Assembly (NCBI GenBank): GCA_018714785.1
Contig: DVMV01000024.1
Coordinates: forward strand, 1-48,888
DNA: 48,888 nt
Source: Candidatus Alloenteromonas pullicola
Lineage (GTDB): Bacteria; Bacillota_I; Bacilli_A; RFN20; CAG-826
Direction: 5' to 3'
Part shown: positions 2,593 to 47,914 of the stretch, piece by piece
Layout of the letters: every line of letters starts with the position of its first letter
How positions within the stretch are numbered: position 1 is the first letter of the stretch
Notes under the pieces: model-generated
Database searches by the model: none
Seen by the model: the letters and a program-made list of their open reading frames with translations, nothing else
What the model was told of the DNA's origin: nothing
Made by a program: the position numbers and the translations under genes

Positions 2593-2622
2593 AAAAAGGC
2601 CGGCTTGCCGGCCCTTTGTTTT
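2593..2622. terminator. Bidirectional intrinsic terminator
   Basis: AAAAA-GGCCGG-cttg-CCGGCC-CTTTGTTTT between convergent genes. Confidence 0.75.
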
Positions 2623-2629
2623 GCTTTGC

Positions 2630-3895: not shown

Positions 3896-3968
3896 GGGTT
3901 TTCCCTCTCTTTCCCTATTAGTAAGCCCTAGTTTCGGCCTTTAGTCAACCAAGCGAGAGAGGGCGAAG

Positions 3969-3990
3969 AAAAAAGGGGCTTATGCCCCTT
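3969..3990 (-). terminator. Intrinsic terminator after the ATP-grasp gene
   Basis: GGGGC-ttat-GCCCC hairpin with a T-run on the minus strand. Confidence 0.7.
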
Positions 3991-13322: not shown

Positions 13323-14522
13323 CTAGTCGCGGAGAAGGCGGAGCGAGGCGACTTTGTATATGCCGTCCTCGTAACCGACATCGACCTCCCCTTGGACTAG
13401 CGGGCGGAGGTAGTCGCGGAAGGATTGACTGAGCCCGTGGACGTTATGCAGGAACTCCGGCGGGATCTTCTTCTCGACGTTGGCGATGCCCTCGACCGAT
13501 TTGAGCTCATAGGCCACCTGGTATGGCTGACTGCTTATCCGGCGGATGGACACCATCTTGCCCGACTCCCCCGCCACGGCCGCCCTGCAGGCGACCCGGG
13601 CGCATTCAACCGCCTCGTCGCGGTCGACCTTCGAGACCAGTATCGGGAAGGCGCGCTGCGGGAGGGATAGCTCAATCGAGCGGGTGGGGAGCCCAAGGTT
13701 CTGCTCCACCCGGCGAGATAGCGCGTCGGCCGCCCCGCCGAGCTGGATGTGGCCGAAGGCGTCGACCCGGGCCGAGGAGGTGTCGCGGGGGAAGACGATG
13801 CCCTCGCTTATGGCGACGACGCAGTGGCCCTTGGCGTCGTGGACCTTCTTGACCTCCTTGTAGAACTCATCGAGGTCGAAGGCGTCCTCCGGCAGGTAGA
13901 TCAGGTCGGGGCGGTATGGCGCGGGGAGGATGTCCACCGAGGCGGTCAGCCAGCCGGCGTTGCGCCCCATCACCTCGACGACGAACACTTTGCCCTTCTT
14001 GTAGCAGGAGGCGTCGACGCACACCGACTTTACGGTGTTGATGACGTATTTCGCGGCCGAGCCGTAGCCGATGCAGTGGTCGGTCGCGGACAGGTCGTTG
14101 TCGACCGTCTTGGGGACCCCGATGACCTTGACGTCCATGCCCTTGGAGGCGAATAGGCGCGAGAGCTTGGAGCAGGTGTCCATCGAGTCGTTGCCCCCGT
14201 TGACGAGGATGTAGCCTATGTCGTGCTTCCTCACGGTCTTGATTATCGATTGGTAGCGCTCATCCTCGAGATCCGAGGGCAATTTGTAGCGGGTCGAGCC
14301 CAGGGCCGCCCCGGGGGTCTGCAGCAGCAATTCGATCTGCTCGGGGTCCTCCTTGCTTAGGTCGGCGAGGTCGTCGAAAAGCAGTCCCTCGATCCCGTGG
14401 AGGCTCCCGAGGACCTTGCTTATCTCCTTATGCTCCCCCGCCTCCCTTATCGCCCCGTATAGGGACGAGTTTATGACCGCGGTCGGTCCGCCCGACTGCA
14501 GGTACGCCAATGCTTTAGCCAT
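13323..14522 (-). CDS. pfp: Phosphofructokinase, PPi-dependent type
   Basis: QSGGPTAVIN, GGNDS (Asp at the position equivalent to E. coli G104), PKTVDND and EVMGRNAGW. Confidence 0.85.
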   Translation of the reverse strand: MAKALAYLQSGGPTAVINSSLYGAIREAGEHKEISKVLGSLHGIEGLLFDDLADLSKEDPEQIELLLQTPGAALGSTRYKLPSDLEDERYQSIIKTVRKHDIGYILVNGGNDSMDTCSKLSRLFASKGMDVKVIGVPKTVDNDLSATDHCIGYGSAAKYVINTVKSVCVDASCYKKGKVFVVEVMGRNAGWLTASVDILPAPYRPDLIYLPEDAFDLDEFYKEVKKVHDAKGHCVVAISEGIVFPRDTSSARVDAFGHIQLGGAADALSRRVEQNLGLPTRSIELSLPQRAFPILVSKVDRDEAVECARVACRAAVAGESGKMVSIRRISSQPYQVAYELKSVEGIANVEKKIPPEFLHNVHGLSQSFRDYLRPLVQGEVDVGYEDGIYKVASLRLLRD

Positions 14523-14578: not shown

Positions 14579-14607
14579 TTGCTTTGTAAGCGGTTACATA
14601 TTATTAT
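14579..14607 (+). promoter_or_regulatory. Promoter of the nucleoside kinase gene with a cre-like palindrome in its spacer
   Basis: TTGCTT (14579-14584)-17 nt-TATTAT (14602-14607). The spacer contains TGTAAGCGGTTACA (14585-14598), which fits the CcpA cre consensus TGWNANCGNTNWCA. Confidence 0.7.
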
Positions 14608-14634: not shown

Positions 14635-16284
14635 ATGCCATTTTCCGTCACCATCGGCAACAACAAGACAACGTATCAGAAGAAGATGAGCCTGCTTGAG
14701 ATACTAAACGGCTCCAACGAGGACAAATCGATCATCGCCGCCCGGGTCAACAACCGGGTCAGGGAATTGACCTACGAGGTCAACTACGACTGCGAGATAC
14801 AGTGGCTCACCGTCAAGGACGGGGATGCCACCAAGACCTACGAGGCATCGCTGCGCTTCATCACCGCGATGGCCTTCCGCCGCGCCTACCCCGATCTGAA
14901 GATCAGGTTCGCCTACAACGTCTCCCGCTGCGTCTCGATCCACCTGCTCACCCCGGGCTACACCGCCAACACGGCGATGCTGCTCAAGGTCAGCCACGAG
15001 ATGGAGCGCATCATCGCCGCCGACTACCCGCTGAACCGGATGGTCGTTCCCCTCGATAAGGCGCGCGAGGTGTATGAGCGGCTAGGCGACGAGGACAAAC
15101 TCGCCCTGCTCCCATACCGCCCCGAGAAGACCGCCCACCTCTATGAGTGCGACGGCTTCTACGACTATATGTACTCCCACATGGTCCCCTCGACCGGCTA
15201 CATCAAGAAGTACAAGCTCCGCCTCTACGCGCCAAGTTTCCTGCTTCAGTACCCGCGCGCCGAAGCCGACGGCGAGATCCCGCCGTTCAAGGATGCCCCG
15301 ACATTCGGCCGGGTGCTCAAGGAATCCCACGACTGGGCCAAGATCGTCGGCTCCGACACGGTGGCCGGCATCAACAAGTCCATCGAGAAGCGCGGCCCCA
15401 TCGAGTTCATCAACCTCTGCGAGGCGCGCCACAACCGGATGCTCTGCGAGCTCGGGCAGATGATCGAGGATTCCATAGACGAGGTGAGCCTGATCTGCAT
15501 CGCCGGCCCCTCGAGCTCTGGCAAGACCACCTTCGCCAACCGCCTCCGCATCGAATTGCTCGCCCGGGGCATCAACCCGATCCGCATCTCTATCGACGAC
15601 TACTACCTCGAGAAGGACAAGATCCCAAAGGGGGAGAACGGGGAGATCGACCTCGAGTCCATCGAGGCGCTCAACATCCCGCTTTTCAACCAGAACATGG
15701 TCGACCTCATCGCCGGGGAGACCGTCACCTTGCCGAAGTTCGACTTCCAGTCCGGCAAGTCCATCCCGGGGAGGACGCTCCACGTCGAGCATGGGCAGCC
15801 CATCATCATCGAGGGGATCCACGCCCTCAACGACCGGATGACCGTCGACATCCCGAAGTCGGCCAAGTTCAAGATCTTCATCGCCCCCCAGGCTCAGATC
15901 AACCTCGACGACCACACCCCGCTATCGCTCACCGACCTGCGCCTCATCCGCCGGATCGTGCGCGACTACAAATTCCGCAACGCCTCGGCCGAGGAGACCA
16001 TCGGCATGTGGCCAAGCGTCAGGGCGGGCGAGTTCAAGTGGATCTACGACACCCAGGAGGGCTCCGACTACGTCTACAACTCGATGCTCAGCTACGAGCT
16101 CCCGGTCATGAAGAAATACGCCTTGCCGCTGCTTAAGGGGATCGAGGAGACATCTCCCTGCTTCCCCACCGCCATGCGGCTGGTGAGGATGCTCAAGTTC
16201 TTCGTCGACATGGACGACCAGTGGGTACCATCGAACTCGCTGATGAGGGAATTCATCGGCGGCTCGTGCTACGAGGACGTGTGA
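14635..16284 (+). CDS. Nucleoside (uridine) kinase with N-terminal TGS/ThrRS-N-like domain
   Basis: N-terminal AARVNN..REL TGS-like region; C-terminal IAGPSSSGKTT, ISIDDYY, IIEGIHALN and RLIRRIVRD. SD AGGAGG. Confidence 0.9.
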   Translation: MPFSVTIGNNKTTYQKKMSLLEILNGSNEDKSIIAARVNNRVRELTYEVNYDCEIQWLTVKDGDATKTYEASLRFITAMAFRRAYPDLKIRFAYNVSRCVSIHLLTPGYTANTAMLLKVSHEMERIIAADYPLNRMVVPLDKAREVYERLGDEDKLALLPYRPEKTAHLYECDGFYDYMYSHMVPSTGYIKKYKLRLYAPSFLLQYPRAEADGEIPPFKDAPTFGRVLKESHDWAKIVGSDTVAGINKSIEKRGPIEFINLCEARHNRMLCELGQMIEDSIDEVSLICIAGPSSSGKTTFANRLRIELLARGINPIRISIDDYYLEKDKIPKGENGEIDLESIEALNIPLFNQNMVDLIAGETVTLPKFDFQSGKSIPGRTLHVEHGQPIIIEGIHALNDRMTVDIPKSAKFKIFIAPQAQINLDDHTPLSLTDLRLIRRIVRDYKFRNASAEETIGMWPSVRAGEFKWIYDTQEGSDYVYNSMLSYELPVMKKYALPLLKGIEETSPCFPTAMRLVRMLKFFVDMDDQWVPSNSLMREFIGGSCYEDV

Positions 16285-16304
16285 TCTAGCGCCCGTCCAA
16301 AGAC

Positions 16305-16335
16305 AAAAGCGGGGACTTAGCCCCGCTTTTCTTTT
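16305..16335 (+). terminator. Intrinsic terminator, possibly bidirectional
   Basis: AAAAGCGGGG-acttag-CCCCGCTTTT-CTTTT. Confidence 0.8.
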
Positions 16336-16392
16336 GCCCGCAAAAAGCGCATATCAGCCAATTTAATTGCAAAGATATCGGCTTTCTGCACG

Positions 16393-16424
16393 AAAAAAGG
16401 CCTTCCCCGAAGGGAGGGCCTTTT
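16393..16424 (-). terminator. Intrinsic terminator of the lipoprotein operon
   Basis: AAAAAA-GGCCTTCCC-cgaa-GGGAGGGCC-TTTT, 8 nt after the stop at 16433. Confidence 0.75.
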
Positions 16425-16432
16425 GGCTTAGT

Positions 16433-17884
16433 TCACTCGGCGGCGTAGCTAGGCAAAGTCGTCGAGTTTATGTCGGAGAGGGTGAAGCGGATGAAATATT
16501 CCTTTCCCTGAATCGAGAAGCTGGCCAAGACGGTTTCGATCGCTGTTTTCTCCTCGTTGAGGGTGACGACCAGGCGGTCGGTCGAGCCATCAAGAGCGCC
16601 CGACTGCACGCCTAGCATCCCGTTGTCAAAATAGATTCCAAGGTTTGGGACGATAAGGGTCTCCGCTTCGTACGTCCTGTCGCCCGTCTTTTTGAAAAGC
16701 GCGGGATTGACCGAAGAGAAATCGGGCCCAAGGCCTTCGAAGGAGTCGATGGTGTAGACCGTGGATGACGAGAGGGTCACAACGCTCCAATCCCATCCGA
16801 GATTGCCGTAATCGTACTGATACACATGGTATAGCCCGTCGGCAGGATCATAGACAGCCTTGTAGTCGTAATCGTCGCCGCCCTGATACGGATGCTCGTC
16901 AGAAGCGGCAGAACGCTGGGAGTAATAGGCCATGTCGTCGCGGACGAAGTAGCCGGTGGTCCAGGTGGTGCGCTCGCCATCCCAAGAGGAGAGGAACTCC
17001 TTGTTGTAGGTGTAGGAGTCGACGCCGTCGAGGCAGTGCAGGGCCGCGGCGAGGTCGGGGTTGTCGTGGCTATAGGGCTGCAGGTGGGCGACCGGCTGCT
17101 CGCCGAGGCTGCGGTCGTAGGTGACGGTGAGCTCGTTGGTCCTGGTGTAGCGGCCCTCCTCGCGGAGCTCGGAGATGTCGAAGGTCAATGAGTCGATCCC
17201 GCCATCGGCGCCGAGGTTGAGGGCGATGTCGTCGACGTAGTTGATCGAGGTCCCGCCATAGCAGGTGACCACGAACTGGGCTTTCGCGCCCTGCAGGTGG
17301 AGGCTGCCGTCCTCTTCCTCGATGATGTCGCTGGCCCGGATGTAGTCCCAGGGGTTGCGGAACAGCGAATCGAAGGCATAGGGGCGGTAGGCCCCGGTGG
17401 TGTCGTTGTAGTCGGAGAGGTAGGAGCTGTTGACCGTGTTGTCGATGGTGATCGACTCCTTGATCGCGAGCCCGGTCTCCTCATCGCGGAAGTAATAGGC
17501 CTGCGGGTCGGTGTAGCCCCACTCGGTCGAATCGACCTTGTCGGTGAGCTTGTAGTCGTAGGCGTTGTAGCTGTACTTCTCGGTGTAGGCACGCACCGCG
17601 CCGTACTGGTGGACGATGTCGTAGGTCTTGCCCTGGTGGATGCCGACCTCCAGCGGGTCGTCGCGGTAGACGTCGGTGGCCATCTCGATGAGGGCGCCAT
17701 GCGTCTTGTGCGCGAGCGAGGCGAGGGCCCTCTGGGCCTTTTCCGTCCCCACCGGAAGCGTCGGCAGGGTCACTTCATCGCCGTCGGCGGAGGAGGATTC
17801 CTGCATCGAGGAGGAGCCGGTCCCCCCGCAGGCGACGAGGGAGAGGGCCAACAAAGGGGCCAATATGAGCAATTTAGCGTTCAT
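16433..17884 (-). CDS. Uncharacterised lipoprotein (two-domain family member)
   Basis: Lipobox SLVA-C, Ser-rich linker, acidic and Tyr-rich body; motifs shared with the two upstream genes; SD AGGAGG. Confidence 0.85.
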   Translation of the reverse strand: MNAKLLILAPLLALSLVACGGTGSSSMQESSSADGDEVTLPTLPVGTEKAQRALASLAHKTHGALIEMATDVYRDDPLEVGIHQGKTYDIVHQYGAVRAYTEKYSYNAYDYKLTDKVDSTEWGYTDPQAYYFRDEETGLAIKESITIDNTVNSSYLSDYNDTTGAYRPYAFDSLFRNPWDYIRASDIIEEEDGSLHLQGAKAQFVVTCYGGTSINYVDDIALNLGADGGIDSLTFDISELREEGRYTRTNELTVTYDRSLGEQPVAHLQPYSHDNPDLAAALHCLDGVDSYTYNKEFLSSWDGERTTWTTGYFVRDDMAYYSQRSAASDEHPYQGGDDYDYKAVYDPADGLYHVYQYDYGNLGWDWSVVTLSSSTVYTIDSFEGLGPDFSSVNPALFKKTGDRTYEAETLIVPNLGIYFDNGMLGVQSGALDGSTDRLVVTLNEEKTAIETVLASFSIQGKEYFIRFTLSDINSTTLPSYAAE

Positions 17885-17896
17885 TTTCTTTCCTCC

Positions 17897-19156
17897 TTAT
17901 TCAGCGAAGCTGGTGTCGAGCCAGCTCGGCATCGCGGTCGAGCCGACCTCGGAGAAGCTCGCGGTGATCGAATACGGGCCGTATTGGAAGTCGTAGTAGC
18001 CGATGCTAACCTCAGACATGGTCTCGCCGTCTAGGCTAACGTAAGCATAGAAGGGCTCGACCGAGGAGACCGAGAAGGCGGAGGGCACGAGGTCGCGGCT
18101 AAGCAGCGGCACCGCGTCGGGTAGGAAGGCGTAGACGCCCTCGGACTGCTTCTGGAGCACCTCCGGCGCGATCTTGGAGTAGTTCGGCAGGTAGTTGGCG
18201 ATCTGGTAGTTGATGCCCGTGGTCGACCAAGAAGCGGTCGCGGCGGAGTAGCGGTAGCCGGTCGCCCTGCTTCCGGCGCCCTGGACGTAGTAGGTGTCGC
18301 CGTCCACCGGGTAGGGGAGGCTCGGGTCGCCGTGGATGTAGAGGCTATCGCCGGAATAGTAATAGGTATAGCCGAGGCGGAGGTCGTTCTCCGCGACGGT
18401 CACGGTGTAGTTGGTGCCAAGCCCCTGCAAGGCGGACTTCAGCTCGGGGTTGTCCTCGGCGCCGACCGAGATGCGGCCGAAGCTCTCCTTGAGGATCCCG
18501 AAGGAGAGGTCGACGGTCAGGGTGGACTCGCCGATGAACATGCCCGAGGTGCTCTCGATGGCGTCGGGGCGGACCGGGCAGGTGAACTCCAGGGTGACCT
18601 TGGAATCGGCCGGGTTCTCCAGGTCATAGCCGGAGAAGGTGGCCGCGGTCACCGGGAAGTCGAGCCCGAAGTAGGCGTTGAGCATGAGCTCGGCCTTCTG
18701 GCTGGAGAGGCTCGAGCCCTCTATGTCGGATGGGTTGATGTAGTCGAAGGGGTCGTAATAGGCCGAGGCGTAGACCAGGTCCATGCCGAAGTCCTCGTCG
18801 ACGACCGACTCGAGCTGGTTCTGGTAGTTGAGGGTGTCGTGGTAGGAATACCCGTCGCTCCCCTCGTAGTGGATGGTGTCGGAGGCCGGCCCGTGGTCGC
18901 GGATGGCCTCGTGCTCCTCATCGTCGAAGGTCACGGCGCCGTAGTCGCGGTCGACGGAGTAGGTGGCTATGGAGTTCAGCGACTCCAATCCCTCGCCGTA
19001 GTCGGTGGTGAGGACGGCGCTGCCCTTAACGTTGTAAGGCAGCTGGAACAGCCGCAGGTACTCCGGCCCTTCCTCGGCGGAGGAGGGGAGGGCGGCGGAG
19101 GTCGCGGCTAGGGGCAATAGAAGCGGCAGCCCCAATGCCAGATATGTCTTTCTCAT
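17897..19156 (-). CDS. Uncharacterised secreted protein (same family, no lipobox)
   Basis: Sec-type signal MRK..LALGLPLLLPLAATSA without Cys; ATGA overlap with the upstream gene; shared motifs. Confidence 0.83.
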   Translation of the reverse strand: MRKTYLALGLPLLLPLAATSAALPSSAEEGPEYLRLFQLPYNVKGSAVLTTDYGEGLESLNSIATYSVDRDYGAVTFDDEEHEAIRDHGPASDTIHYEGSDGYSYHDTLNYQNQLESVVDEDFGMDLVYASAYYDPFDYINPSDIEGSSLSSQKAELMLNAYFGLDFPVTAATFSGYDLENPADSKVTLEFTCPVRPDAIESTSGMFIGESTLTVDLSFGILKESFGRISVGAEDNPELKSALQGLGTNYTVTVAENDLRLGYTYYYSGDSLYIHGDPSLPYPVDGDTYYVQGAGSRATGYRYSAATASWSTTGINYQIANYLPNYSKIAPEVLQKQSEGVYAFLPDAVPLLSRDLVPSAFSVSSVEPFYAYVSLDGETMSEVSIGYYDFQYGPYSITASFSEVGSTAMPSWLDTSFAE

Positions 19157-20652
19157 CCTTGGTAGCTCCCTAGATATAGATCGAAGGTGTCGAGGACGCC
19201 GTCGAGGTTGTGGGCGGTGATGTCGGTGGTCCCGAAGTCGGAGTAGGACACGGTGGTCACGCAGTCGCCGCCGAAGGCCTCGGAGGCGAAGTAGAGCTTG
19301 AAGACCGGGTAGCCCGCCTCGTCGATGCTGACCTCAAGCCGGTCGAAGCCGAAGGTGAAGCTGGTCGTCGACTCGACGTACCAGCCGCTCATGCGGGTCG
19401 GGTAGTCGCCGACGCCGAAGACGGCGGCCATGATGTCGAAGCAGAGGCTGTAGTCGAGGTACGGGAAGTCGGTCAGGTCGAAGACGTAGCCCTCGCCGTC
19501 CTTCTCGAAGAAGGCGGTCGAAAGCGACTGGATGAACGGCACGGCCCCGTCATCGACGGTGTAGGCGTCGGCCGATAGCGTCGCGGCGTAGCCGTTTGAG
19601 CCCGCGGTTCCAGGAGTGACCCCGATCTGGTAGTAGCCGTCCTTCCCCGCCGCTTCGGCGGTGAAGTAGGCCAGCCCGGTGTAGGTCGTGCCATAGGAGG
19701 CATCGGTCAAGGGCATGTCGGTGATCATGAGCTTGCGGCCCCCGAACTTGCCAGCCAGGTCGTAGTAGGACTTGTACTCGCCATGAGTCGGGACCTCGGT
19801 TCCGTCGACCAAGGTGGTCTTGACGTTGGTGGTGAAGTTCAGCCCCTGGACGCCTTCGTAGAGCTTCTGGAAGGAAGCGGTGAGGCGGGAGAGGTCCGCC
19901 TCATCAAGCGATGAGGTATACGGGGTGAGAGGGGTCACCGCGTCGATGGCGGAGAGCTCGACGACGTAGTCCTCGGCCATGTAGCCGTAGGCGTCGGCGA
20001 GGACGTTGGCGAACTTCGCTTGCTTCGGGGTGCCGGCCGAATCGACGGTCAGCTCGAAGTCCTCGATCAGCTGATAGGAGGTGAGGTAGTCGAAGCTATA
20101 CGGGTTGATGGTGTAGAGGAACCTCGACATCGCCGGGGAGATGAGGGCGGTCAGCAGATCGGTCCCCTTGAGGGTGTAGCCGCCTTCCGCGGTCTCCACG
20201 GTGAAGTAGCGCGAGAAGTTGGACGCGTTGATGCCAGAGAGGGCCTTGTAGCCGGAGTCGTAGTTGCCGGCGAAGGCGATCGGGAGGTTGGAGTCGTCGG
20301 TGACCTCGGTCGACTCGACGACGTTGTCGAGCCCGAGGGTGTTGAGCATGACGTAGCCCTCGCTTGAGGCGGTCACGTCGGACTGCAATAGCGGCATCCT
20401 GGTGCCGGTGAGGCAGAGGTCGCTATGGCGGGCGGTGGAGCTCACCTCGTCGGTCGCGGTGAAGGTCGCGCCCCCGAAGGCGGCGTAGCGCGGGGTGATG
20501 GTCGCCACCGACTTGATCGGGGCGGCGAAGAAGGAGGCGATGCTGCTTATCTGCGCATCGGTCAGCCCCACTTCCTCGGCTGTCGCGCCGGTGGCGGAGC
20601 AGCCGCAGAGGGCTAGCCCGCAAAGGGCGATGGCGGAATTTATCTTCTTCAT
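19153..20652 (-). CDS. Uncharacterised lipoprotein (same family, more divergent)
   Basis: Lipobox ALCG-C; TGATG coupling to the upstream gene; C-terminal VSYSDFGTT. Confidence 0.83.
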   Translation of the reverse strand: MKKINSAIALCGLALCGCSATGATAEEVGLTDAQISSIASFFAAPIKSVATITPRYAAFGGATFTATDEVSSTARHSDLCLTGTRMPLLQSDVTASSEGYVMLNTLGLDNVVESTEVTDDSNLPIAFAGNYDSGYKALSGINASNFSRYFTVETAEGGYTLKGTDLLTALISPAMSRFLYTINPYSFDYLTSYQLIEDFELTVDSAGTPKQAKFANVLADAYGYMAEDYVVELSAIDAVTPLTPYTSSLDEADLSRLTASFQKLYEGVQGLNFTTNVKTTLVDGTEVPTHGEYKSYYDLAGKFGGRKLMITDMPLTDASYGTTYTGLAYFTAEAAGKDGYYQIGVTPGTAGSNGYAATLSADAYTVDDGAVPFIQSLSTAFFEKDGEGYVFDLTDFPYLDYSLCFDIMAAVFGVGDYPTRMSGWYVESTTSFTFGFDRLEVSIDEAGYPVFKLYFASEAFGGDCVTTVSYSDFGTTDITAHNLDGVLDTFDLYLGSYQG

Positions 20653-22127
20653 CAGTTGGCCCTCCTTACGGTGATGGTGGCGCCTTCATCGGTGAGCTTG
20701 CCGACCTCGAAGGTCAACCCGAGCTCGGGGCGGACGGCCCCATTGCCGTCGAAGCGGAAGTCGTGGTAGAAGCCATCGACCAGCGATTCCTTGCCGAAGA
20801 CGTCGCCCTCATGCCAGAGGTTGTCGTCGGTGATGTACATCGGGTTGGTCATCTGGCGGTTGGCGCCGGTGCTGTCGAGCAGCTGGACGAGGGCGTAGTT
20901 GCCCGCGATGCCGTAGACCGCGTTCACGTTGCGGCCGGAGTTGGTGTAGGCGAAGTCGTAGGCCAGGTCGGAGTTGAAATCCGGCTCGCCATAATATGGG
21001 TAGAACCCGTCGTCTCCGCCGGCGACTAAGCGGGAATCGACTTTGTAGACCCTGACGGCCGGCTCGGTCAAAGAGGAGCCGGAGTTAAGCCCGGTCGGGG
21101 TGAAGTAGTCGATGAGCAGGTACTCGCCGAAGAACCCGGTGTCCTCGTTGGACAGAAGCAGGCTCTCGCCCGGGGCGATGGTGTAGGTCGCCTCGCCCTC
21201 AAGCGAGGAGGCGATGACCTTGGTCGGCTCGGTCCAGCCTAGCAGGTACTTGGTAAAGGGATTGTGGTCGGAGATGCCCTCCTCGGTGACGTCGGTGTAG
21301 CCAAGCGGGGCGCGGACGTTGCCCTGCAGGTCGCCGGTCTGGTCGGAGTATTCCGGCACGCCGAGCAGGTCGGCGATGGCCTTGATGAAGCGGACGTTCA
21401 TCGGGTCCTGGGTGCCGAAGTTGGTCCCAAGCGACCCGCACATCCACTCGGCGGCGTTGGCCTTCTCGGCGGAGACCAGCTGATCGCGCATGAAGGAGGC
21501 GACCAGCTGGTCCATGGTCTCGTCGCCGTAGGTCCAGGTTCCGTTGTAGGCCGGGAAGGGGTTGGCGACGATGAGGTTGTCGATCTTCCCGTCGCCGTCC
21601 TGGTCGTAGTCGGCTATTGAGTTGCCCTCCGCGACCCAGGCGTCGATCGCCTCATCCAATGCGGAGGCGATGACCGGGGAGGAGCCGGTGCTGGCTAGGT
21701 TGTTGATGAAGTCCTCGAAGGTGGTCGAGATGGTGACCGGGGCCTCGACCGAGCCCGAGAGGCTTAGCTTGCCGCCGCTGGATTGCTGGTAGTAGCTGAG
21801 GGCGGTGTAGCCGACGGGGCTCGACTCGAATCCGGAATCGAGGGCCAGGATGTCCGAGGCGGTAATCTTGAAGATGTCATCGCTGAAGCTGAAGGGGATG
21901 ACCAATACCTTCTGGTCGCCCTCGCTTCCCATCGCCCCGCTGCCCTGCGATTGGCGCAGCAGCGAAAGCGGCGATCCCTGCTTCTCGGTCTGGGAGGTGC
22001 CAGACGAGTCGGTTTCCTCGCCATCCCCCAGGGACGAGGTCCCCGCGGGTTCGCAAGCGGCCAATAGGAGGGCGGATAGGGCTAGCGGGAATATTGCCCG
22101 CGTTAACCTTTCCTTTTTCTTTGACAT
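20652..22127 (-). CDS. M6 (immune inhibitor A-like) metalloprotease-fold lipoprotein lacking HExxH
   Basis: Lipobox LLAA-C; GDQKVLVIPFSFSD, SYYQQSSGGKLSLSG, YDQDGDGKID, DHNPFTKYLLGW..P, EYLLIDYFTPTGLN and VRVYKVDSRL. The expected HExxH position reads KAIAD. Confidence 0.78.
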   Translation of the reverse strand: MSKKKERLTRAIFPLALSALLLAACEPAGTSSLGDGEETDSSGTSQTEKQGSPLSLLRQSQGSGAMGSEGDQKVLVIPFSFSDDIFKITASDILALDSGFESSPVGYTALSYYQQSSGGKLSLSGSVEAPVTISTTFEDFINNLASTGSSPVIASALDEAIDAWVAEGNSIADYDQDGDGKIDNLIVANPFPAYNGTWTYGDETMDQLVASFMRDQLVSAEKANAAEWMCGSLGTNFGTQDPMNVRFIKAIADLLGVPEYSDQTGDLQGNVRAPLGYTDVTEEGISDHNPFTKYLLGWTEPTKVIASSLEGEATYTIAPGESLLLSNEDTGFFGEYLLIDYFTPTGLNSGSSLTEPAVRVYKVDSRLVAGGDDGFYPYYGEPDFNSDLAYDFAYTNSGRNVNAVYGIAGNYALVQLLDSTGANRQMTNPMYITDDNLWHEGDVFGKESLVDGFYHDFRFDGNGAVRPELGLTFEVGKLTDEGATITVRRAN

Positions 22128-22209
22128 GTGTTTCTCCTGTTAGCTTTCCTTTTTTTGTAAAAGCGTATTAAAGATATAACAAAGCGAAAAAATGTGTATC
22201 CCCAAATTT

Positions 22210-22223
22210 TGTAAGCGCTTCCA
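22210..22223. promoter_or_regulatory. cre-like LacI-family operator
   Basis: TGTAAGCGCTTCCA in the AT-rich divergent intergenic region; 12/14 identical to the site at 14585. Confidence 0.6.
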
Positions 22224-22289
22224 GAAAAAAATCTTGCACTTTTTATAAATCAATCTTTAATAGTCGTGGACGAAAGGAAATAGCAAATA

Positions 22290-23906
22290 ATGAAAAACAA
22301 AGGAAAAATTCTGCTGGCGGCGGTCCTCAGCGGCGCCCTTATGTCGGGCTGCGGTGGGAACGTGTCCAGCAGCGGGTCCATCGACGGCGGAGGAACCGGT
22401 TCATCGACTGAATCTTCCACCGCCACATCGACCTCGGAAACCTCTTCCGAGGATTTGGCCGAGGAGCTGTCGGACTCCGCCAAGCTCAAGCAGAGGCTGC
22501 TTCTGGCCTCCGACAGGGTCGTCACCTCGCGCCGTCTGTCGGTCGACCTGTCCGGCACAATCTATGACGACGGCAAGACCGAGTCGGTCTCATTGGCCAC
22601 CGCGACCGAAGGGCTCCGCACCTACACCGAGACCCCAGCCGGCGGGACCACGCGCACCTACGTCAGCTACGACGGCATCCTCGGCAGCGACTACTACAGC
22701 GTCGATTCGGACACCTATGGCTATTCGATCCGATATAAGGTCGGCGATGGCGGCACCTACGACGAGGAAAGCGCCGCGGCGACCATCGAGCTCGAGCACC
22801 AGGAGACCGGTCTGAAGGGCGCCTTGGCCTACGACGAGGCCCTGCTCGGGATGCGGTTCCTCGAAGGCGGGGACGTCGAGTCCACCGACCCCTGCCTTCA
22901 CGAGGTCGAATACACCGTCACCGCCACCGAGGGCGGATACGAAGCGGTCTGGGAGTCCTACTACGAGAACACCGAGACCAGCTCAGAGTACTACTACAAC
23001 GGCAACTTCCTGATCATCGCCTCCTTCGACGAGGATCTCAACCTGGTGGGGCTGCAGTCGGACGTCACCATCGTCTTCCCCGGCGAATGGGACGCCTCGA
23101 TCCACGCGCCGCTATCCACCGCCACCCCGATCCACCGGCTCTATGAGCTAAGCGACATCGTCTACGCCGAATCCTACCCGGCGACCGATCCCGCCCACCC
23201 GATACTCACCAACCTCGACGATTACTTCGTGAGCGAGGTCACCTCGGCCTCGTTGGTCAGCTGGAACGCCACCGGCCCCGGCGGAGCCTTCCAGGTCGGC
23301 GACACCGTAAAGCTCGACGACTCGAGCATCGAATACGCCCCCTCGACCGCGCTCAACGCCAACTACCTCACCATCACCGGAGCCTCGGAGGATGGGGTCT
23401 TGGTCGAAGCCGAGAAGATGGGCATGACCGCCACCGTCTTCGGCAAGGCCGGAACCTTCGAGCTCTACGTCGGGGATGAGGTCAGCCCGAGGCTCGGCAC
23501 CATCACCGTCACCGTCTCCGAGGTCGACACCTCCGGCGGCTCCAACGTCTCCTCGATCGATTGGACCGGATACGAGCATTCCGAGGACGCCACCTGGACC
23601 GAGACCAACCCGGTTTACAACGTCACTGTCCCCTTCAACTTCAACTGGAACCAGGTTTGGGTGCGCGTCGACGACGGGACCCAGGCGATGCTCGACAGGA
23701 TAATCCCGTCCTTCACCAACTCCAGCGTCATGCAGGTCCACTTCCTGGAGGATCCTTCCATGGCCTCGGCCGGATACGCCATCATGGAATTCTACCCGGT
23801 CATGAACAACACCACCACTACCATGACCATCACCAACCCCGATCCCAGCAAAGCCTGGGGCGTCGAGACCATCACGGTCAACTTCACCGTCGTTCCCAAC
23901 GCCTAA
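22290..23906 (+). CDS. Uncharacterised lipoprotein with probable C-terminal beta-rich (Ig-like) domains
   Basis: Lipobox LMSG-C, Ser/Thr/Gly linker, beta-rich C-terminal half ending ETITVNFTVV. Confidence 0.85.
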   Translation: MKNKGKILLAAVLSGALMSGCGGNVSSSGSIDGGGTGSSTESSTATSTSETSSEDLAEELSDSAKLKQRLLLASDRVVTSRRLSVDLSGTIYDDGKTESVSLATATEGLRTYTETPAGGTTRTYVSYDGILGSDYYSVDSDTYGYSIRYKVGDGGTYDEESAAATIELEHQETGLKGALAYDEALLGMRFLEGGDVESTDPCLHEVEYTVTATEGGYEAVWESYYENTETSSEYYYNGNFLIIASFDEDLNLVGLQSDVTIVFPGEWDASIHAPLSTATPIHRLYELSDIVYAESYPATDPAHPILTNLDDYFVSEVTSASLVSWNATGPGGAFQVGDTVKLDDSSIEYAPSTALNANYLTITGASEDGVLVEAEKMGMTATVFGKAGTFELYVGDEVSPRLGTITVTVSEVDTSGGSNVSSIDWTGYEHSEDATWTETNPVYNVTVPFNFNWNQVWVRVDDGTQAMLDRIIPSFTNSSVMQVHFLEDPSMASAGYAIMEFYPVMNNTTTTMTITNPDPSKAWGVETITVNFTVVPNA

Positions 23907-23924: not shown

Positions 23925-23956
23925 AAAACCCAGGAGCGATCCTGGGTTTTATTTTT
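23925..23956. terminator. Bidirectional intrinsic terminator
   Basis: AAAACCCAGGA-gcga-TCCTGGGTTTT-ATTTTT between convergent genes. Confidence 0.85.
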
Positions 23957-24839
23957 GTCTTAGGAAGCTTAACGCCTCATCTAGCCAGCCTTCCGCCGAG
24001 GTGCCTTCGCCCATCCCCCATCCATGCCCATCTCCGGGATAGACGCGGTAGAGGTGCCTTACCCCGCGCTGGGACAGTGCCCTGTCGAAGGCGTCGGAGT
24101 TTATCGGCGGGACGACGTCGTCGGACTCGGCCCGCCAGAGGTAGGTTGGCGGATAATCGGGGTCGACGTGCCCCTCGGCGGAGAGGAAATCGAATAGGTC
24201 GCCCCTGCCGCCGGTGAACCACCGCTTGCTCGGCTCATGGGTCGGGAGGGAGAAGCTTATCACGGGATAGCCGAGTATCAGTGCTTGCGGCCTGGGGTAA
24301 TCGAAGGCCTCGGTCATGTCCTTGCGGCAAATGGTCGCCGATAGGTGCCCTCCGGCGGAGAAGCCTAAGAGCAAAGTCGGCAGCCTGCCGGCCTCCCGGA
24401 GGCATTCCGCCACCTGGATGACCGGCTTGGGGAAGCAGGCGTCGTCCTTGATCCCGTATCCGGCGATGTAGACCGAATAGCCCGCCTCCTGCAGCGGCCT
24501 GACGAAATCCAGCCCCTCGTTGGCCGATGCGATCATCTCATATCCCCCGCCGGGGACGACGACGGCGTTGGCCTTGGGGTTCCCTATGGGGAAACTGAGG
24601 TACCCGTATTCGATCGACTTGCGGTATGGATGGAAGCAGCCCGGATGGTCCATGATCAGCCCAACCAGCCCCGCGAAGGAAGGGTAGCCTTCCCCCAGGC
24701 AGGCGTCGGTCGCCTCCCGAAGGGTGACGTCGGGCCGCGCGGCGTAGAAAGCGTCTTCCAGGGGCAGGATCAGTTTCCTCGCCCCATGGACGTCTTGGTT
24801 CTCAAACAGCATCCGCACGGGGGTCTCGTCAATTCCCAT
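23949..24839 (-). CDS. Alpha/beta hydrolase (esterase/lipase)
   Basis: PGGGY, GFSAGGHL nucleophile motif, ILGYPVIS, D..VP and HG. Start moved to ATG 24839, which has an AGGAG SD. Confidence 0.9.
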   Translation of the reverse strand: MGIDETPVRMLFENQDVHGARKLILPLEDAFYAARPDVTLREATDACLGEGYPSFAGLVGLIMDHPGCFHPYRKSIEYGYLSFPIGNPKANAVVVPGGGYEMIASANEGLDFVRPLQEAGYSVYIAGYGIKDDACFPKPVIQVAECLREAGRLPTLLLGFSAGGHLSATICRKDMTEAFDYPRPQALILGYPVISFSLPTHEPSKRWFTGGRGDLFDFLSAEGHVDPDYPPTYLWRAESDDVVPPINSDAFDRALSQRGVRHLYRVYPGDGHGWGMGEGTSAEGWLDEALSFLRQK

Positions 24840-25959
24840 TGGACGGCTCCTGCTTCCTCGAGGAGGCGGCGAACCGCTGCTTCTGCAGCCCATAGGCCTC
24901 CAGCAGCTGGTGGTAATACAGCTTCCTCATCGTGACGTAGCGCTCCCGCTCCTGCTCGGAGACGGTCGACATGTAGAGGCTGGTGAAGACCTTCTCCAGC
25001 CGGAAGAAGGACTCATATAGCGAAAGAAGGGTCAGCGAGAAGAAGTAGTTCTTGCTCGAGTAGATGAGCAGCGGCGAGGAATGGGCGATCTCCGAGCTCA
25101 TCTCGTAGACCTTGGAGTAGGAGGAGAGGCCCGCCATCCGCTGGACCCCATCGCGGAAGTTCAGCTTGAAGCCGTCCTGCTTCTCCACCCCGTCGATCGC
25201 ATACAGCCAGCCGTATTCGATGAAGCGCTTCATGTCCTTGCTCTTTAGGTCGTGGCTTCTCATCTCGGACTTGATCTTGACGAACTCCTCGTCGGTCTCC
25301 TCCTTGGTCTTTAGCCCCCCGCGGAAGGCGAGGGCGTAGCGCATGTGGACCAGGTAGCGCTCGATGATCGGCTTGCCATATTTAAGCAGGCAATGGAGGA
25401 TGCACTCGTTCTCATGCAGCGTCCTCCAGGTCGAGAAGGCCTCGGTCTCGAAGCCGTTCTCCAATAGCGAGGTGACGCATTTGGCCATCTGGAAGCCCTT
25501 GTTCATAACGTCGACCACCAAGGTCTGCTGGGGGTCGTTCTTCTTGTAGCGGGATAGCATCCCCAGTATGAAGTTGAGGTAGAGGTCGAGGGTCGACATC
25601 ATCGGCGAGAAGCGCGAGGTCAAAGACCCCATCCGGTAGGCCAGGTGCTCATTGGTGAAGTATTTGTCCAGCGACACCGACGCTAGGAACCCCAGGTATT
25701 CCTGATTGTCCTTAAGCGTCTCGGGCTTGGTGGCGGTATGGGCGGCCAGATAGAAGGCATGCTCTGAGCAGATGTAAAGCGTGAGCGAGGCGAAGTTGAT
25801 GCCAAAACGCGAGATGACCGGGCTCTCCTCGCGCAGCTCGGTCGTCGCCTGCAGCGCGGCCTCGAAAGCCTCCTGGATCAGACCGTAGTCGAGCGATTCG
25901 GGGACCTTGAGGGCGGTTAGGAACGCCTTATAGTCTTTTATCGGGTTTTGGCTGGCCAT
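24829..25959 (-). CDS. DUF5677-like helical protein
   Basis: A...WRTLHE, YGW and Y..SS..AHSS motifs recalled as typical of DUF5677; not verified by a search. Confidence 0.65.
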   Translation of the reverse strand: MASQNPIKDYKAFLTALKVPESLDYGLIQEAFEAALQATTELREESPVISRFGINFASLTLYICSEHAFYLAAHTATKPETLKDNQEYLGFLASVSLDKYFTNEHLAYRMGSLTSRFSPMMSTLDLYLNFILGMLSRYKKNDPQQTLVVDVMNKGFQMAKCVTSLLENGFETEAFSTWRTLHENECILHCLLKYGKPIIERYLVHMRYALAFRGGLKTKEETDEEFVKIKSEMRSHDLKSKDMKRFIEYGWLYAIDGVEKQDGFKLNFRDGVQRMAGLSSYSKVYEMSSEIAHSSPLLIYSSKNYFFSLTLLSLYESFFRLEKVFTSLYMSTVSEQERERYVTMRKLYYHQLLEAYGLQKQRFAASSRKQEPSNGN

Positions 25960-25977
25960 AGGGGCATTTTACCCCCT

Positions 25978-28900
25978 TCAGGAGACCTTTTTCACTACCC
26001 CGCGCTCAACCGAGAGCAGATAGGCCTCCACTTTCTTGCCGAAAATGCGCTCGATCGACTTCTTATAGCCCAGCACCTGGGCGATGTAGGCCTCGTCGTC
26101 GAGGCTATACGACTTGAAGTCGAACAGGTCGATATGGTCGGGGTAGTCTAGGAACATGTCCACCACCCCCGAGTTGCCGTCTTGATCCTTGAAGCGGTAT
26201 TCGTGGTATTCCTCCGCTTCGCTCGAGCGATCGAAGATGGGCAGGCGAAGCACGGTTTCTATCTTCCGCCTCATGGACTCGGATATCCCTTCCGCGGGCG
26301 CTTTGCGGGTGAAGCTCGTCAGCTCGAGCGCCTTGTGGAGGTCGGTGCCGGAAAGCAAGGTGGCGAAGCTCTTCTCGGCTTGGCCGCGGGAATAGGAAGC
26401 CCGGGGCTCAGAAACCTTCATGTTGAGATTGGGCAGCTGGCGGAAGAACCCATTGGGGTCGATGCGCTTGGCTAAGGCGCCGCTTGCGGTCCCTTGGGAT
26501 GAAGGGAACGGCGGAAGGAAGCGGAATTTGGCGGCCATCAGGTCTACGATGTCGGCGTCGGACTTGGCGAAGCGGGCGAGGCCGCCATAGGGGCCTTTGC
26601 CCTCCGGCTTGGCCCTTACGAAGGTGAGCCGCTCCTTGGCCCGGGTTATGGCGACGTAAAGGAGCCTTATCTTCTCCGAGATGGCCTTTTTCCTCTCTGT
26701 GTCCTCGGTCAAGGTCTGCAGGAAGGTCGCCGAGCCGAATGGCTTGGAGGGCAATAGGCCATACTCTTCGGAGGAGACGATCTTCGCCCCGCCGCCGCCT
26801 TTGGCGTAGCTCCGCTCGAGGTCGGCGAGGTAGACATAGGTGAACTCCAGGCCCTTCGAGGCATGGACCGACATCCCCTTCACGCAGGGGAATAGCTTCT
26901 CCGAGGGCGAGGAGACCTTGACCTTGGCTTCGGACTTATCGGAGTCGCGCAGGAAGGCGGCGAATTCGGAAAAGCCTTGCAGCGATGAGTCGAACGAGGA
27001 GGCGAGGCTTAGCAGGAAGCTGAGGGCCTGCAGGTTCTCTCGGCGCTTGTCGACGTAGGCGAGGTTGTCGTAGAAGCCGAGCCAATCGAAGGCGTTCTGG
27101 AGGGCATCCTGGACTGGCAAACCCCGCAAAGCGGGCATTATCGATTTGATTCTGGCGACGATCGGAAGCGATTTCAGGTCGTTTTTGCGGGCTAGCTCGT
27201 GGATTGCCTCGTCGTCGAAATCGGGGCAGAGGTAGCTCCGCTGCAACCCCAACGCGCTGGACTTGAAGGCGAATGACGACTCATCCCCGCGGGCTAGGCA
27301 ATCCAATAGCTCGACCAGGCTGCAGGCGGAAAGAAACGACTCCGTGCCGCTGGTCGAGCTATCGATGGTCGGGGAGAAGGGGATGTGCATCTTGGAGAAC
27401 ACCTTCATGATGACCGGCAGCGAGTTCTTCCGGCTGACCAATATGGCGAAGTCGGAGTAGTCGGCGTCCCTGGTGGCGGGCTGCCCGTCCTTGAAGCAGG
27501 CGACCTGGGCCTTGGAGGCGACGATGCTCTTTATGTCCTCCCCGATGGCGCGCGCCATCTCCTCGAATTGGTTCCCGATCGATGGGTCGTACTCCATCAA
27601 GGCAAACCCGTGGATTGGGGAAGAGGAGGCGTCGTAATAGGCCGCCCCGGGGTTGAGGGCTTGGCCATTGGAGTAGTCCACCCCGCCGAAGTCCTTGCTC
27701 ATGAAGGAGGAGAACATGGCGTTGAGGCCATTGATTATCTGAGGCCTGGAGCGGAAGTTGTCGTCAAGCGAGATGAGCGTCCCATTGCCCTGCTCGCAAT
27801 CCTCCATCATCGAGAGGAACAGGTCGGGGTTGGCGTTGCGGAAGCGGTATATCGACTGCTTGATGTCGCCGACGCAGAAGAGGTTGTCGTGGGCGATCTC
27901 CTTCAGCAATTCCATCTGAAGGTTTGAGGTGTCCTGGAACTCGTCGACCATGATGAAGCGGTATTTATCCTGCAGCTGCTTCTTTATTTCGGGGATGCTC
28001 GCGACCTTCCTCGCGAAATAGGCGACGTCGGAGAAGGTGAAGGCGGAGTTCTCCCGCTTGTAGGAGTCGAGGCGATCATTGAGTTCCTCAGTGAGCTCAA
28101 GCACCGGGCGCATCAAGGCAAGCGCCTCAAGCTGCTGCTTGACGAGGTCCTCGTCGGAACCGGAAAGCAAGGCGCAGGCCTGCTTGTACTCGGCGCTGAC
28201 CACGGAGCGGATGGCCTTGTCCTCTGGGTTGAGCTCCTTGGGGGTCGCCCTCCTTAGGCCGGTGAAGAACCCGACCGACTCGCCCGGCTTTAGCGACTCG
28301 AAGGTATCAAGAACCTTCTTAATGTCCTCTACGTCGCGGTCGGAGGTCGAGGAGCCGTTCATGTTGGCGTATAGCGGCGCGAGGCTAAGGCAGTCGCGGA
28401 GCAGCGACTTCCCGTATTCGCGGTAGTCCTTGACCTTCGATGCCACGAAGCCCTCGCTCAGGTATTTTTCCCCGTAGGTTGCCAAAAAGGCGTCCTTGTC
28501 GCCTGAAAGCTCGCCGAGGGAGAGCAGGGCATTTACGTAGCGGTATAGGGTGTCGAAGCTGCTCCGGCAATAGATCGAGCAGAAGTCGCGGAATCCATCC
28601 GCCTCCCCGCCGATGGCCTTCTTCGACAATCGCTCCACGAGCTCGTCGAATATCCTCCGCTCCTCCGTCTTGAACAGGAACTCGTCCTGGATGGAGGGCG
28701 GCAAAGGCAGCCCCGCTTCCTCGTAATGCTCCATGAGCAAGGAGTTGGCGAAGGAGTCGAAGGTGCAGATCGACGCCTGCTCGACCTCATCGGCCATGGC
28801 CCTGACCTCGGGATGGGAAGAGGAGGCGATCTTGCCTCGGATGCGCTCCTTCATCTCGGCGGCGGCCTTCTCGGTGAAGGTGAGCACCAAAAGCTGCTTG

Positions 28901-29040
28901 GGGGTGCAGTGCTTCCCCTCGACTAGGTGCAGGGCCCGCTCGGAAAGGGTCTCGGTCTTCCCGCTGCCGGCCCCGGCGGAAACCAGGCAATTGCCATAGA
29001 CGAAATCTATGGCTTCCTGCTGCTTGCTAGTCGGCTTCAT
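25978..29040 (-). CDS. addA: AddA/RexA-like UvrD helicase-nuclease
   Basis: SAGAGSGKT, LTFT.KAA.EM, VDEFQDT, VGDIKQSIYRFR, NFRS, HASKGLEF and LLYVAITRAKE; C-terminal G.VD..DFKS nuclease motif. Start moved to ATG 29040 (GAGGAGG SD). Confidence 0.9.
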   Translation of the reverse strand: MKPTSKQQEAIDFVYGNCLVSAGAGSGKTETLSERALHLVEGKHCTPKQLLVLTFTEKAAAEMKERIRGKIASSSHPEVRAMADEVEQASICTFDSFANSLLMEHYEEAGLPLPPSIQDEFLFKTEERRIFDELVERLSKKAIGGEADGFRDFCSIYCRSSFDTLYRYVNALLSLGELSGDKDAFLATYGEKYLSEGFVASKVKDYREYGKSLLRDCLSLAPLYANMNGSSTSDRDVEDIKKVLDTFESLKPGESVGFFTGLRRATPKELNPEDKAIRSVVSAEYKQACALLSGSDEDLVKQQLEALALMRPVLELTEELNDRLDSYKRENSAFTFSDVAYFARKVASIPEIKKQLQDKYRFIMVDEFQDTSNLQMELLKEIAHDNLFCVGDIKQSIYRFRNANPDLFLSMMEDCEQGNGTLISLDDNFRSRPQIINGLNAMFSSFMSKDFGGVDYSNGQALNPGAAYYDASSSPIHGFALMEYDPSIGNQFEEMARAIGEDIKSIVASKAQVACFKDGQPATRDADYSDFAILVSRKNSLPVIMKVFSKMHIPFSPTIDSSTSGTESFLSACSLVELLDCLARGDESSFAFKSSALGLQRSYLCPDFDDEAIHELARKNDLKSLPIVARIKSIMPALRGLPVQDALQNAFDWLGFYDNLAYVDKRRENLQALSFLLSLASSFDSSLQGFSEFAAFLRDSDKSEAKVKVSSPSEKLFPCVKGMSVHASKGLEFTYVYLADLERSYAKGGGGAKIVSSEEYGLLPSKPFGSATFLQTLTEDTERKKAISEKIRLLYVAITRAKERLTFVRAKPEGKGPYGGLARFAKSDADIVDLMAAKFRFLPPFPSSQGTASGALAKRIDPNGFFRQLPNLNMKVSEPRASYSRGQAEKSFATLLSGTDLHKALELTSFTRKAPAEGISESMRRKIETVLRLPIFDRSSEAEEYHEYRFKDQDGNSGVVDMFLDYPDHIDLFDFKSYSLDDEAYIAQVLGYKKSIERIFGKKVEAYLLSVERGVVKKVS

Positions 29041-47069: not shown

Positions 47070-47113
47070 TGATTGCCTCCAAATAAGATATTACACCGCG
47101 CGCCAAGGCAAGG

Positions 47114-47138
47114 AAAAGGGGCGGCAGCAACCCGCCCC
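47114..47138 (-). terminator. Intrinsic terminator
   Basis: Minus strand GGGGCGG-7 nt-CCGCCCC-TTTT after the stop at 47150. Confidence 0.65.
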
Positions 47139-47149
47139 GATGAGTTATC

Positions 47150-47806: not shown

Positions 47807-47914
47807 TCCGTTACCTCACATTGGAATACTTTAATGGGAAGCAACGACGAACGTCAATGCTAAAATATGTCAACCAAACAATTTTGATTGACGTTATTTC
47901 GTTATTCGGCACCA

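Follow-up and report, generated by a model that had tools for sequence, protein, structure and literature searches.

Our study reports on a set of genes for exported proteins in Candidatus Alloenteromonas pullicola, an uncultured gut bacterium, which lies in a stretch of 48,888 nucleotides (contig DVMV01000024.1 of GenBank assembly GCA_018714785.1); this whole stretch is called the window below. Four genes, P1 to P4, follow one another on the minus strand. P1 (20652-22127) encodes a predicted 491-residue lipoprotein homologous to the M6, or immune inhibitor A (InhA), peptidases and lacking their HExxH motif, a pseudo-peptidase; P2 (19153-20652) a 499-residue lipoprotein (Cys18) from a new family of exported proteins; P3 (17897-19156) a 419-residue exported paralog of P2 and P4 with a signal peptide and no lipobox; and P4 (16433-17884) a 483-residue lipoprotein (Cys19) that is a paralog of P2 and P3. 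A fifth gene, N (22290-23906, plus strand), encodes a 538-residue lipoprotein (Cys21) and is transcribed divergently from the operon.

The P1 stop codon and P2 start codon overlap in cTGATGa (20654-20650), the P2 stop and P3 start overlap in ATGA (19156-19153), and the 12 nt between P3 and P4 contain AAGGAGG, the ribosome-binding site of P4 itself. An intrinsic terminator on the same strand (about 16393-16424), with the hairpin GGCCCUCCC-UUCG-GGGAAGGCC and a U6 tract, ends the operon; its folding energy, taken over 48 nt, is -20.2 kcal/mol (z = -2.44, with 5 of 200 shuffles equally stable), and terminator-like sites within P1-P4 are not enriched (4 found, 4.1 in shuffles). An earlier note on this DNA had described the co-oriented genes, both couplings, the 12-nt gap and the terminator, and each was found where it had been placed. 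A candidate extended -10 element of the operon promoter (TGTTATATC, 22173-22181, minus strand) was read by eye from an alignment of the intergenic regions, which conserves the pattern T.T..TAT and shows it as TGnTAT some 45 nt ahead of P1. Judged by co-orientation, overlapping or short junctions, a single terminator and a conserved order, P1-P4 are a single operon-like unit. An Rfam scan returned two tRNAs only.

Conservation and probable joint control of the five-gene set

Relatives came from a profile scan of genome contigs with the P4 alignment, which gave 32 pattern matches and nine confirmed loci (L001 to L009), all from metagenome-assembled genomes of uncultured Bacilli/Firmicutes, among them Candidatus Alloenteromonas pullistercoris (L002) and Candidatus Enterosoma merdigallinarum (L009). 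The conserved gene order on which the earlier note's reading depended is present in all eight loci with full flanks, where P1-P2-P3-P4 was traced by tblastn and by BLASTP at the level of open reading frames (ORFs); the ninth, L007, is a 4-kb contig that holds a partial P3, then P4, then an M6 gene with an intact HExxH motif (a live M6 gene). Junction gaps range from -14 to +18 nt across nine genomes. N orthologs lie divergently upstream of P1 in the same eight loci, as found by tblastn in L001-L006 and L008 and by profile in L009 (L009:3568-5151, E 1.2e-43). The flanks of L001-L005 are those of the window, with a phosphofructokinase (PFK), a uridine-kinase-like gene, an S9 esterase, DUF5677 and AddAB; those of L006, L008 and L009 differ, and because the order holds there all the same, the cluster is kept whatever its surroundings.

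Identity of P1-P4 to the window's proteins goes down to 29-58 %, against 84-85 % for the uridine-kinase-like neighbour, and the ratio of nonsynonymous to synonymous substitution rates (dN/dS), 0.17-0.26 at the locus, is 0.06-0.07 in PFK and the uridine-kinase-like gene. The five genes are under purifying selection and evolve several times faster than their housekeeping neighbours. These comparisons show a vertically inherited set of five genes for predicted surface proteins in small-genome RFN20 gut Bacilli.

N and P1 are separated by a spacer of 162 nt, in which six aligned intergenic regions share the invariant block TG.AAGCGCTT.CA. This block is a palindrome, at 22210-22223 in the window (minus strand, TGGAAGCGCTTACA; plus strand, TGTAAGCGCTTCCA), and precedes the ATG of P1 by 82 nt and that of N by 66 nt. 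It resembles the catabolite-responsive element (cre), whose consensus is TGWAANCGNTNWCA in an excerpt of PMC5263246; the window copy agrees with that consensus at 13 of 14 positions, and L001-L006 and L008 have copies that agree at all 14. Such a site occurs in the spacer of eight of nine genomes (the window, L001-L006 and L008, the last with two copies); the L009 spacer has no exact site and holds a near-site with two mismatches. Sites of the form TGNAANCGNTNNCA number two in the 48.9-kb window, against 0.23 expected, and none of 100 shuffles reached two. The second and only other one in the window, TGTAAGCGGTTACA (14585-14598), lies between the divergent genes for a PPi-type PFK (13323-14522) and the uridine-kinase-like protein (14635-16284), so that the glycolytic PFK gene is preceded by a cre-like palindrome too; the matching region of L001 has two such sites. 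The resemblance to CcpA/cre control of Gram-positive nutrient-acquisition genes thus lies in a 14-nt palindrome in the promoter region and a second site before PFK. The locus differs from that system in that the window's LacI-family regulator gene (865-1800) scores 70.7 bits, a long way short of the 442 bits set as the cut-off for CcpA. We infer that N and the operon are probably controlled together by a CcpA/LacI-type regulator through this candidate shared operator, and such joint control would tie the role of the locus to carbon or nutrient status.

N itself has no Pfam or NCBIfam family in its window copy, and in profile comparisons it is unrelated both to P2-P4 and to the N-terminal regions of the long live M6 proteins described below. 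Its orthologs reach 780-870 residues in L003:3012-5627, L004:3055-5655, L005:3343-5688 and L008:2619-5087, against 538 in the window. The L003 ortholog has an extra Big_2 domain, and a C-terminal module (profile positions about 415-545) matches two or three times in L003 and L004.

All four operon products carry export signals, and a PROSITE-like lipobox rule agrees with the earlier note in lipid-anchoring P2 and P4 and in finding no lipobox cysteine in P3. The lipobox cysteines in the window are Cys25 of P1, Cys18 of P2, Cys19 of P4 and Cys21 of N. Counted over the genomes, N, P1 and P4 have a lipobox in 9/9, P2 in 6/9 and P3 in 0/9, with borderline near-lipoboxes containing proline in P2 of L002 and P3 of L009. 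Such variable anchoring would mean that the free members (P3 and some P2) are either held by anchored proteins or act as shuttles. The named relatives belong to the GTDB order RFN20 and its families CAG-826 and CAG-288 according to excerpts of PMC8035907, with a name correction in an excerpt of PMC12451612. Passages of PMC10868615 give both families as predicted to be peptidoglycan-deficient and RFN20 as predicted to lack sortases, while those of PMC7301438 describe small RFN20 genomes in which several amino-acid pathways are missing, TGA is a stop codon and, in most, mraY and murG are absent. Since the relatives are predicted to be wall-less and without sortases, lipoproteins are likely the main surface proteins of these cells.

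The M6 homolog and its HExxH-bearing relatives

The earlier note had read P1 as a dead M6-like lipoprotein, and profile searches uphold this. NCBIfam model TIGR03296 matches P1 with E 8.9e-13 and 48.8 bits (residues 81-349 on model positions 6-275 of 286), a score under the curated cut-off of 110.8. Pfam gave no Peptidase_M6 (PF05547) match to P1 at E <= 1, and single-sequence phmmer searches of the PDB returned no chain for P1 and likewise none for a live M6 neighbour. A profile of nine P1 orthologs matches InhA (4yu5) with E 2.9e-5, with a stretch of P1 aligned over the zinc-site helix of the enzyme, and it matches the live HExxH neighbours with E 1.8e-41 to 4.3e-28.

Translation and alignments place the remnant of the zinc site at the codons for KAIAD (21369-21383, minus strand), in which His has become Lys, Glu has become Ala and the second His has become Asp. 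In a MAFFT alignment of 11 orthologs and six HExxH-bearing relatives, KAIAD sits under HEQGH, HETGH and HEVGH. The motif is found in none of the nine locus copies of P1 and none of 11 close database homologs (P0065-P0075), that is, in 0/20, and is intact in all six more distant relatives, namely four long lipoproteins beside the cluster (in L006, L008 and L009), P0076 and P0077. The third zinc ligand of M6 peptidases is an acidic residue a few positions past the second His. A candidate for this position is found in the GVPEY/GLPDY stretch, where the acidic residue is kept in the clade of the window, with GLDAL in L006 and GLDNL in L008. A DxDGDGxID loop is retained in P1 at residues 175-183. 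On these alignments P1 is classed as a catalytically dead M6 homolog, and its dN/dS of 0.25 between the window and L001 indicates that the gene is maintained.

A quick maximum-likelihood tree of 20 sequences, from which near-duplicates (L004 and several of P0065-P0072) were omitted, separates 14 dead from six live M6-like sequences at one branch (SH-aLRT 100). Because dead and live sequences split across a single branch with this support, the loss of HExxH in P1 is ancient and looks like one event that took place before these lineages split.

In the deeper lineages the live relatives adjoin the cluster. A long lipoprotein (869-889 residues) with an intact HEQGH follows P4 on the same strand in L006 and L008, with an MFS transporter gene next, and in L009 a live copy of 740 residues is convergent to P4. 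The long live M6-like genes (740-889 residues, minus strand) are L006:11436-14045, L006:119-2746, L008:11726-14395 and L009:11410-13632, and most have a lipobox-like N-terminus; their N-terminal 400 or so residues match nothing elsewhere in the loci. The live M6 gene of L007 is read as two ORFs (2487-3440 and 3437-4066), which align one after the other along the single ORF L006:11436-14045 at 87 % and 95 % identity; the split reflects a frameshift, a pseudogene or a mistake in assembly.

As compared with InhA and the other members of MEROPS family M6 (TIGR03296, PF05547; 4yu5, 4yu6), P1 shares homology over the catalytic domain and export, and in relatives it is adjoined by HExxH-bearing members. 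It differs in its sub-cut-off score, in having KAIAD for HExxH (with non-His residues in all 20 orthologs), in its lipid anchor and length of about 490 residues, and in the three paralogs of an unrelated family that always lie downstream. The four-gene unit of the earlier note stands as an operon-like unit and has to be drawn larger: what is new is the conserved divergent lipoprotein N, the cre-like palindrome as a shared candidate operator, and the live HExxH paralogs next door in some, deeper lineages.

The P2-P4 family

Pairwise BLASTP among the three downstream proteins is weak (P3-P4, E 1e-4; P2-P3, E 0.062; P2-P4 not significant). Profile-profile comparison with hhalign is significant for all three pairs (98.3-99.8 %, E 1e-14 to 3e-30), with 98.3 % and E 1.2e-14 over 321 columns for P2-P4, 98.4 % and E 5.1e-15 over 305 columns for P2-P3, and 99.8 % and E 3.4e-30 over 312 columns for P4-P3. 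All five sets of motifs that the earlier note had aligned by eye fall in the same columns, so that its three paralogs are borne out. The P2 alignment held 47 sequences (from 55 hits, minus one near-identical sequence and eight fragments), that of P3 nine and that of P4 15; as a control, the unrelated neighbours N and P1 match the P2 and P4 profiles across the signal peptide only.

The N- and C-terminal halves of P2-P4 are each separately conserved. Like halves match between families (N-halves, 97.3 % and 97.0 %; C-halves, 91.6 % and 94.0 %), and crossed comparisons of N-half with C-half between families give 0.3-3.8 %. An internal duplication was considered and is unsupported, N-half against C-half giving 27.5 %, 2.9 % and 0.1 % within families and 18.6 % when merged. 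A tree of 36 sequences (eight orthologs per paralog, ten hand-picked P2 representatives and two P4 database homologs) has three clades, with support of 100 for P2 and its representatives, 98 for P3 and 100 for P4, in which P3 groups with P4 as its sister (100) and the species branch in one order inside the P2, P3 and P4 clades. As three supported clades share one species order, the triplication predates the split of the lineages, and we regard P2, P3 and P4 as true, ancient paralogs of a predicted exported family of about 420-500 residues.

A search of 1.84 billion cluster representatives found 55 members of the P2 family at E <= 1e-3, 50 of them at E <= 1e-10; all are at most 520 residues long, and the full-length ones have signal peptides. 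A search for longer fused forms of P2 found none, which is weak evidence. Pfam and NCBIfam have nothing for P2-P4. When Pfam was run on all 47 P2-family members (E <= 10) and 15 P4-family members (E <= 0.1), it gave lipoprotein-signal matches and scattered single chance hits only, with DUF6612, LolA or LppX matched by 0/47 and 0/15, respectively. Sequence and profile searches of the PDB with P2, P3, P4 and N found no relative, and for P2-P4 none to LprG, LppX or LolA; the P4-family profile meets near-identical legume-lectin chains at E 0.05-0.46, which is not significant, and the P2 and P3 profiles have no legume-lectin or ConA-like match. PADLOC and PHROGs have no entry for P2-P4, and tblastn gave no match to P2 or P1 in plasmids and none to P4 in phages. 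Literature searches found nothing that ties immune inhibitor A/M6 to these lineages or describes an operon with a dead M6 protein, and DUF6612 is not mentioned in any paper found. The earlier note's remark that this is no described system agrees with all of these sources (Pfam, NCBIfam, PADLOC, PHROGs, PDB sequences and the literature). By these searches P2-P4 are a previously undescribed protein family, and the architecture of the locus matches no described system found; it is a familiar kind of locus, a surface-lipoprotein operon with a pseudo-enzyme, built from an unannotated family in a little-studied lineage.

Two structural leads point in one direction. In the ESM Atlas model of P2 (predicted template-modelling score, pTM, 0.65) residues 25-245 align with a cluster of DUF6612 lipoproteins (TM 0.56 by row, 0.32 by query), and P4, compared by language-model features, comes nearest among named clusters to LppX_LprAFG (0.88) and DUF6612 (0.87), both below the threshold of 0.9 that would make them more than leads. 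LppX_LprAFG (PF07161) and DUF6612 (PF20316) presumably share a LolA-like fold. Like P2-P4, these proteins are exported or lipid-anchored, and their module of about 200-250 residues corresponds to one half of P2-P4; P2-P4 differ in being twice as long and in having no sequence-profile or PDB match to them, the likeness coming from weak Atlas leads. The Atlas leads agree on a LolA/LprG/DUF6612-like carrier fold for P2-P4 and sequence profiles do not confirm it, which makes such a fold a weak prediction. Hydrophobic-moment periodicity, used as a crude guide to secondary structure, gave values near those of shuffles and was uninformative.

Elsewhere in the window three tandem paralogous genes on the minus strand (46338-47069, 47150-47806 and 47915-48526) encode small lipoproteins of 243, 218 and 203 residues, related to each other at BLASTP E 1e-10, for which no PDB or NCBIfam match was found. 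All three share with P2, P3 and P4 a C-terminal signature, F/S-S/T-x-Y-G-S/T-T. As a regular expression this signature occurs in 20 of 336 six-frame ORFs from the window and the loci, all 20 being P2, P3 or P4 members or the three small lipoproteins, and each match lies 3-31 residues from the C-terminus. Compared with the merged C-halves of P2-P4 by hhalign, the small lipoproteins match at 72.6 % (E 3.2e-5, 42 columns; reversed control, 0.1 %), and they may be single-module relatives of the P2-P4 family.

A further ORF of the window, of 2321 residues (36996-43961, minus strand), has hydrophobic N-terminal segments, is rich in Leu, Ser and Asp, and at E <= 1e-5 has no match in Pfam or NCBIfam. 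Two pairs of neighbouring same-strand ORFs overlap if the first start codon is used, 23949-24893/24829-25959 (S9 esterase-like and DUF5677) by 65 nt and 25978-29238/29027-31447 (a UvrD-type helicase and a PD-(D/E)XK nuclease, AddAB-like) by 212 nt; the true starts of these overlapping ORFs (23949-31447) probably lie further downstream.

Possible functions of the locus

We propose, tentatively and at somewhat less than even chances for the proposal as a whole, that the locus encodes a catabolite-controlled, non-catalytic apparatus for substrate capture on the exposed membrane; its anatomy as set out above is highly probable, and the function given to it here is doubtful. The dead M6 scaffold P1 and the three paralogs would bind an extracellular macromolecule, most plausibly a protein, peptide or glycoprotein, and cleavage would come from live M6 lipoproteins encoded separately. 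P1, P4 and N, with a lipobox throughout, would keep the products at the cell; P3, which has none, and P2 where it has none would be retained by the anchored proteins or would ferry ligand to them. Tight gene coupling and the anchoring pattern suggest that the four operon proteins could form a complex, which the earlier note had proposed as a stoichiometric one with the pseudo-peptidase binding substrate. Scavenging of protein, peptide or glycoprotein is favoured because amino-acid auxotrophy, protease neighbours and catabolite control come together here.

Several observations weigh against this proposal. Gene coupling alone is weak evidence of physical association, and the former zinc-site residues of P1, whose binding of anything is conjectural, are unconserved: no His is conserved at either zinc-ligand column among P1 orthologs, and the residues there differ by lineage. 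No live M6 gene lies within 10 kb of the cluster in the window or in L001-L005, that is, in 6/9 genomes. A scan of 16200-22400 with the sigma-70 consensus found no promoter-like site, and the cre-like site might serve N alone, work by activation and not by repression, or be the target of a different LacI-family protein. The fold leads, finally, favour lipid carriers of the LolA/LprG/DUF6612 kind over peptide binders.

These leads would favour lipid carriage instead, in which P2-P4, and perhaps the small lipoproteins at 46338-48526, would be tandem LolA/LprG/DUF6612-like half-barrels that scavenge or shuttle lipids, sterols or lipoglycans on behalf of a cell with no wall and little biosynthetic capacity, with P1 as a docking scaffold. 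The Atlas leads for P2 (DUF6612) and P4 (LppX_LprAFG and DUF6612), the two-half build of P2-P4, the small lipoproteins of about 200 residues with the same C-terminal signature, the predicted lack of a wall in relatives and a cardiolipin-synthase-like PLD gene a few genes downstream of the cluster in L008 would all suit such carriers. The Atlas scores are under the 0.9 threshold, however, neither a DUF6612, LolA or LppX profile nor an LprG, LppX or LolA chain in the PDB was matched, and a cre-type operator and adjacent proteases better suit nutrient capture; we consider lipid carriage unlikely. Rather improbable, too, is a role in adhesion or as a variable surface coat, with the five exported proteins serving as adhesins or as an antigenic shield, as in many Mollicutes lipoprotein families, and the dead M6 protein as a binding module. 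Fast evolution speaks for it (identity of 29-58 % against 84-85 %, and dN/dS 3-4 times that of the neighbours), as do the Big_2 domain and repeated C-terminal modules of N orthologs and the predicted surface exposure of all products; against it stand strict one-to-one orthology, a constant order, the lack of copy-number variation or phase-variation repeats in nine genomes, and a catabolite-type operator that suggests a metabolic role.

By analogy with other systems, the pseudo-peptidase, P2-P4 or both might instead regulate the live M6 proteases as decoy, inhibitor, activator or chaperone. Live HExxH paralogs beside the operon in L006, L007, L008 and L009 and the sister relationship of dead and live forms would fit, and Clostridioides difficile, in the excerpts consulted for CspC/CspA and GerS-CwlD, offers a dead protease beside a live paralog and a lipoprotein that partners a hydrolase. 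Those cases are analogies only, in other protease clans (subtilisin, amidase) and a spore setting and with no sequence relation. The six genomes without a nearby live M6 gene count against such regulation, three large paralogs would be many parts for it, and P2-P4 have no propeptide-like similarity to M6 proteins; we think it very unlikely.

A more specific and speculative reading, to which we give little credence, would join the carrier fold to the dead protease, with all five proteins in one heteromeric receptor on a naked membrane. The pseudo-protease would be its scaffold, and a new carrier fold of two modules would be present in three diverged copies, of which one is released and serves as a shuttle. 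Under catabolite control the receptor would scavenge from host or diet some lipid-linked or glycosylated macromolecule for which the reduced genome has no pathway. If this were true, the surface capture machines of other phyla would have a Gram-positive, Mollicute-type counterpart here, and the module would be met again in single-domain lipoproteins encoded elsewhere in the genome.

RFN20 are common, uncultured gut bacteria, and for their predicted wall-less families lipoproteins would be the whole interface with host and diet. The locus is among the few features of that surface conserved from CAG-826 to CAG-288, and it pairs a long-preserved pseudo-enzyme with a family of at least 55 clusters at 50 % identity that have no Pfam, NCBIfam or PDB relative; its regulatory signal, moreover, is a readable one. 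It is therefore a concrete target for structure determination and ligand screening, and could hint at the nutritional dependencies that block cultivation of these bacteria.

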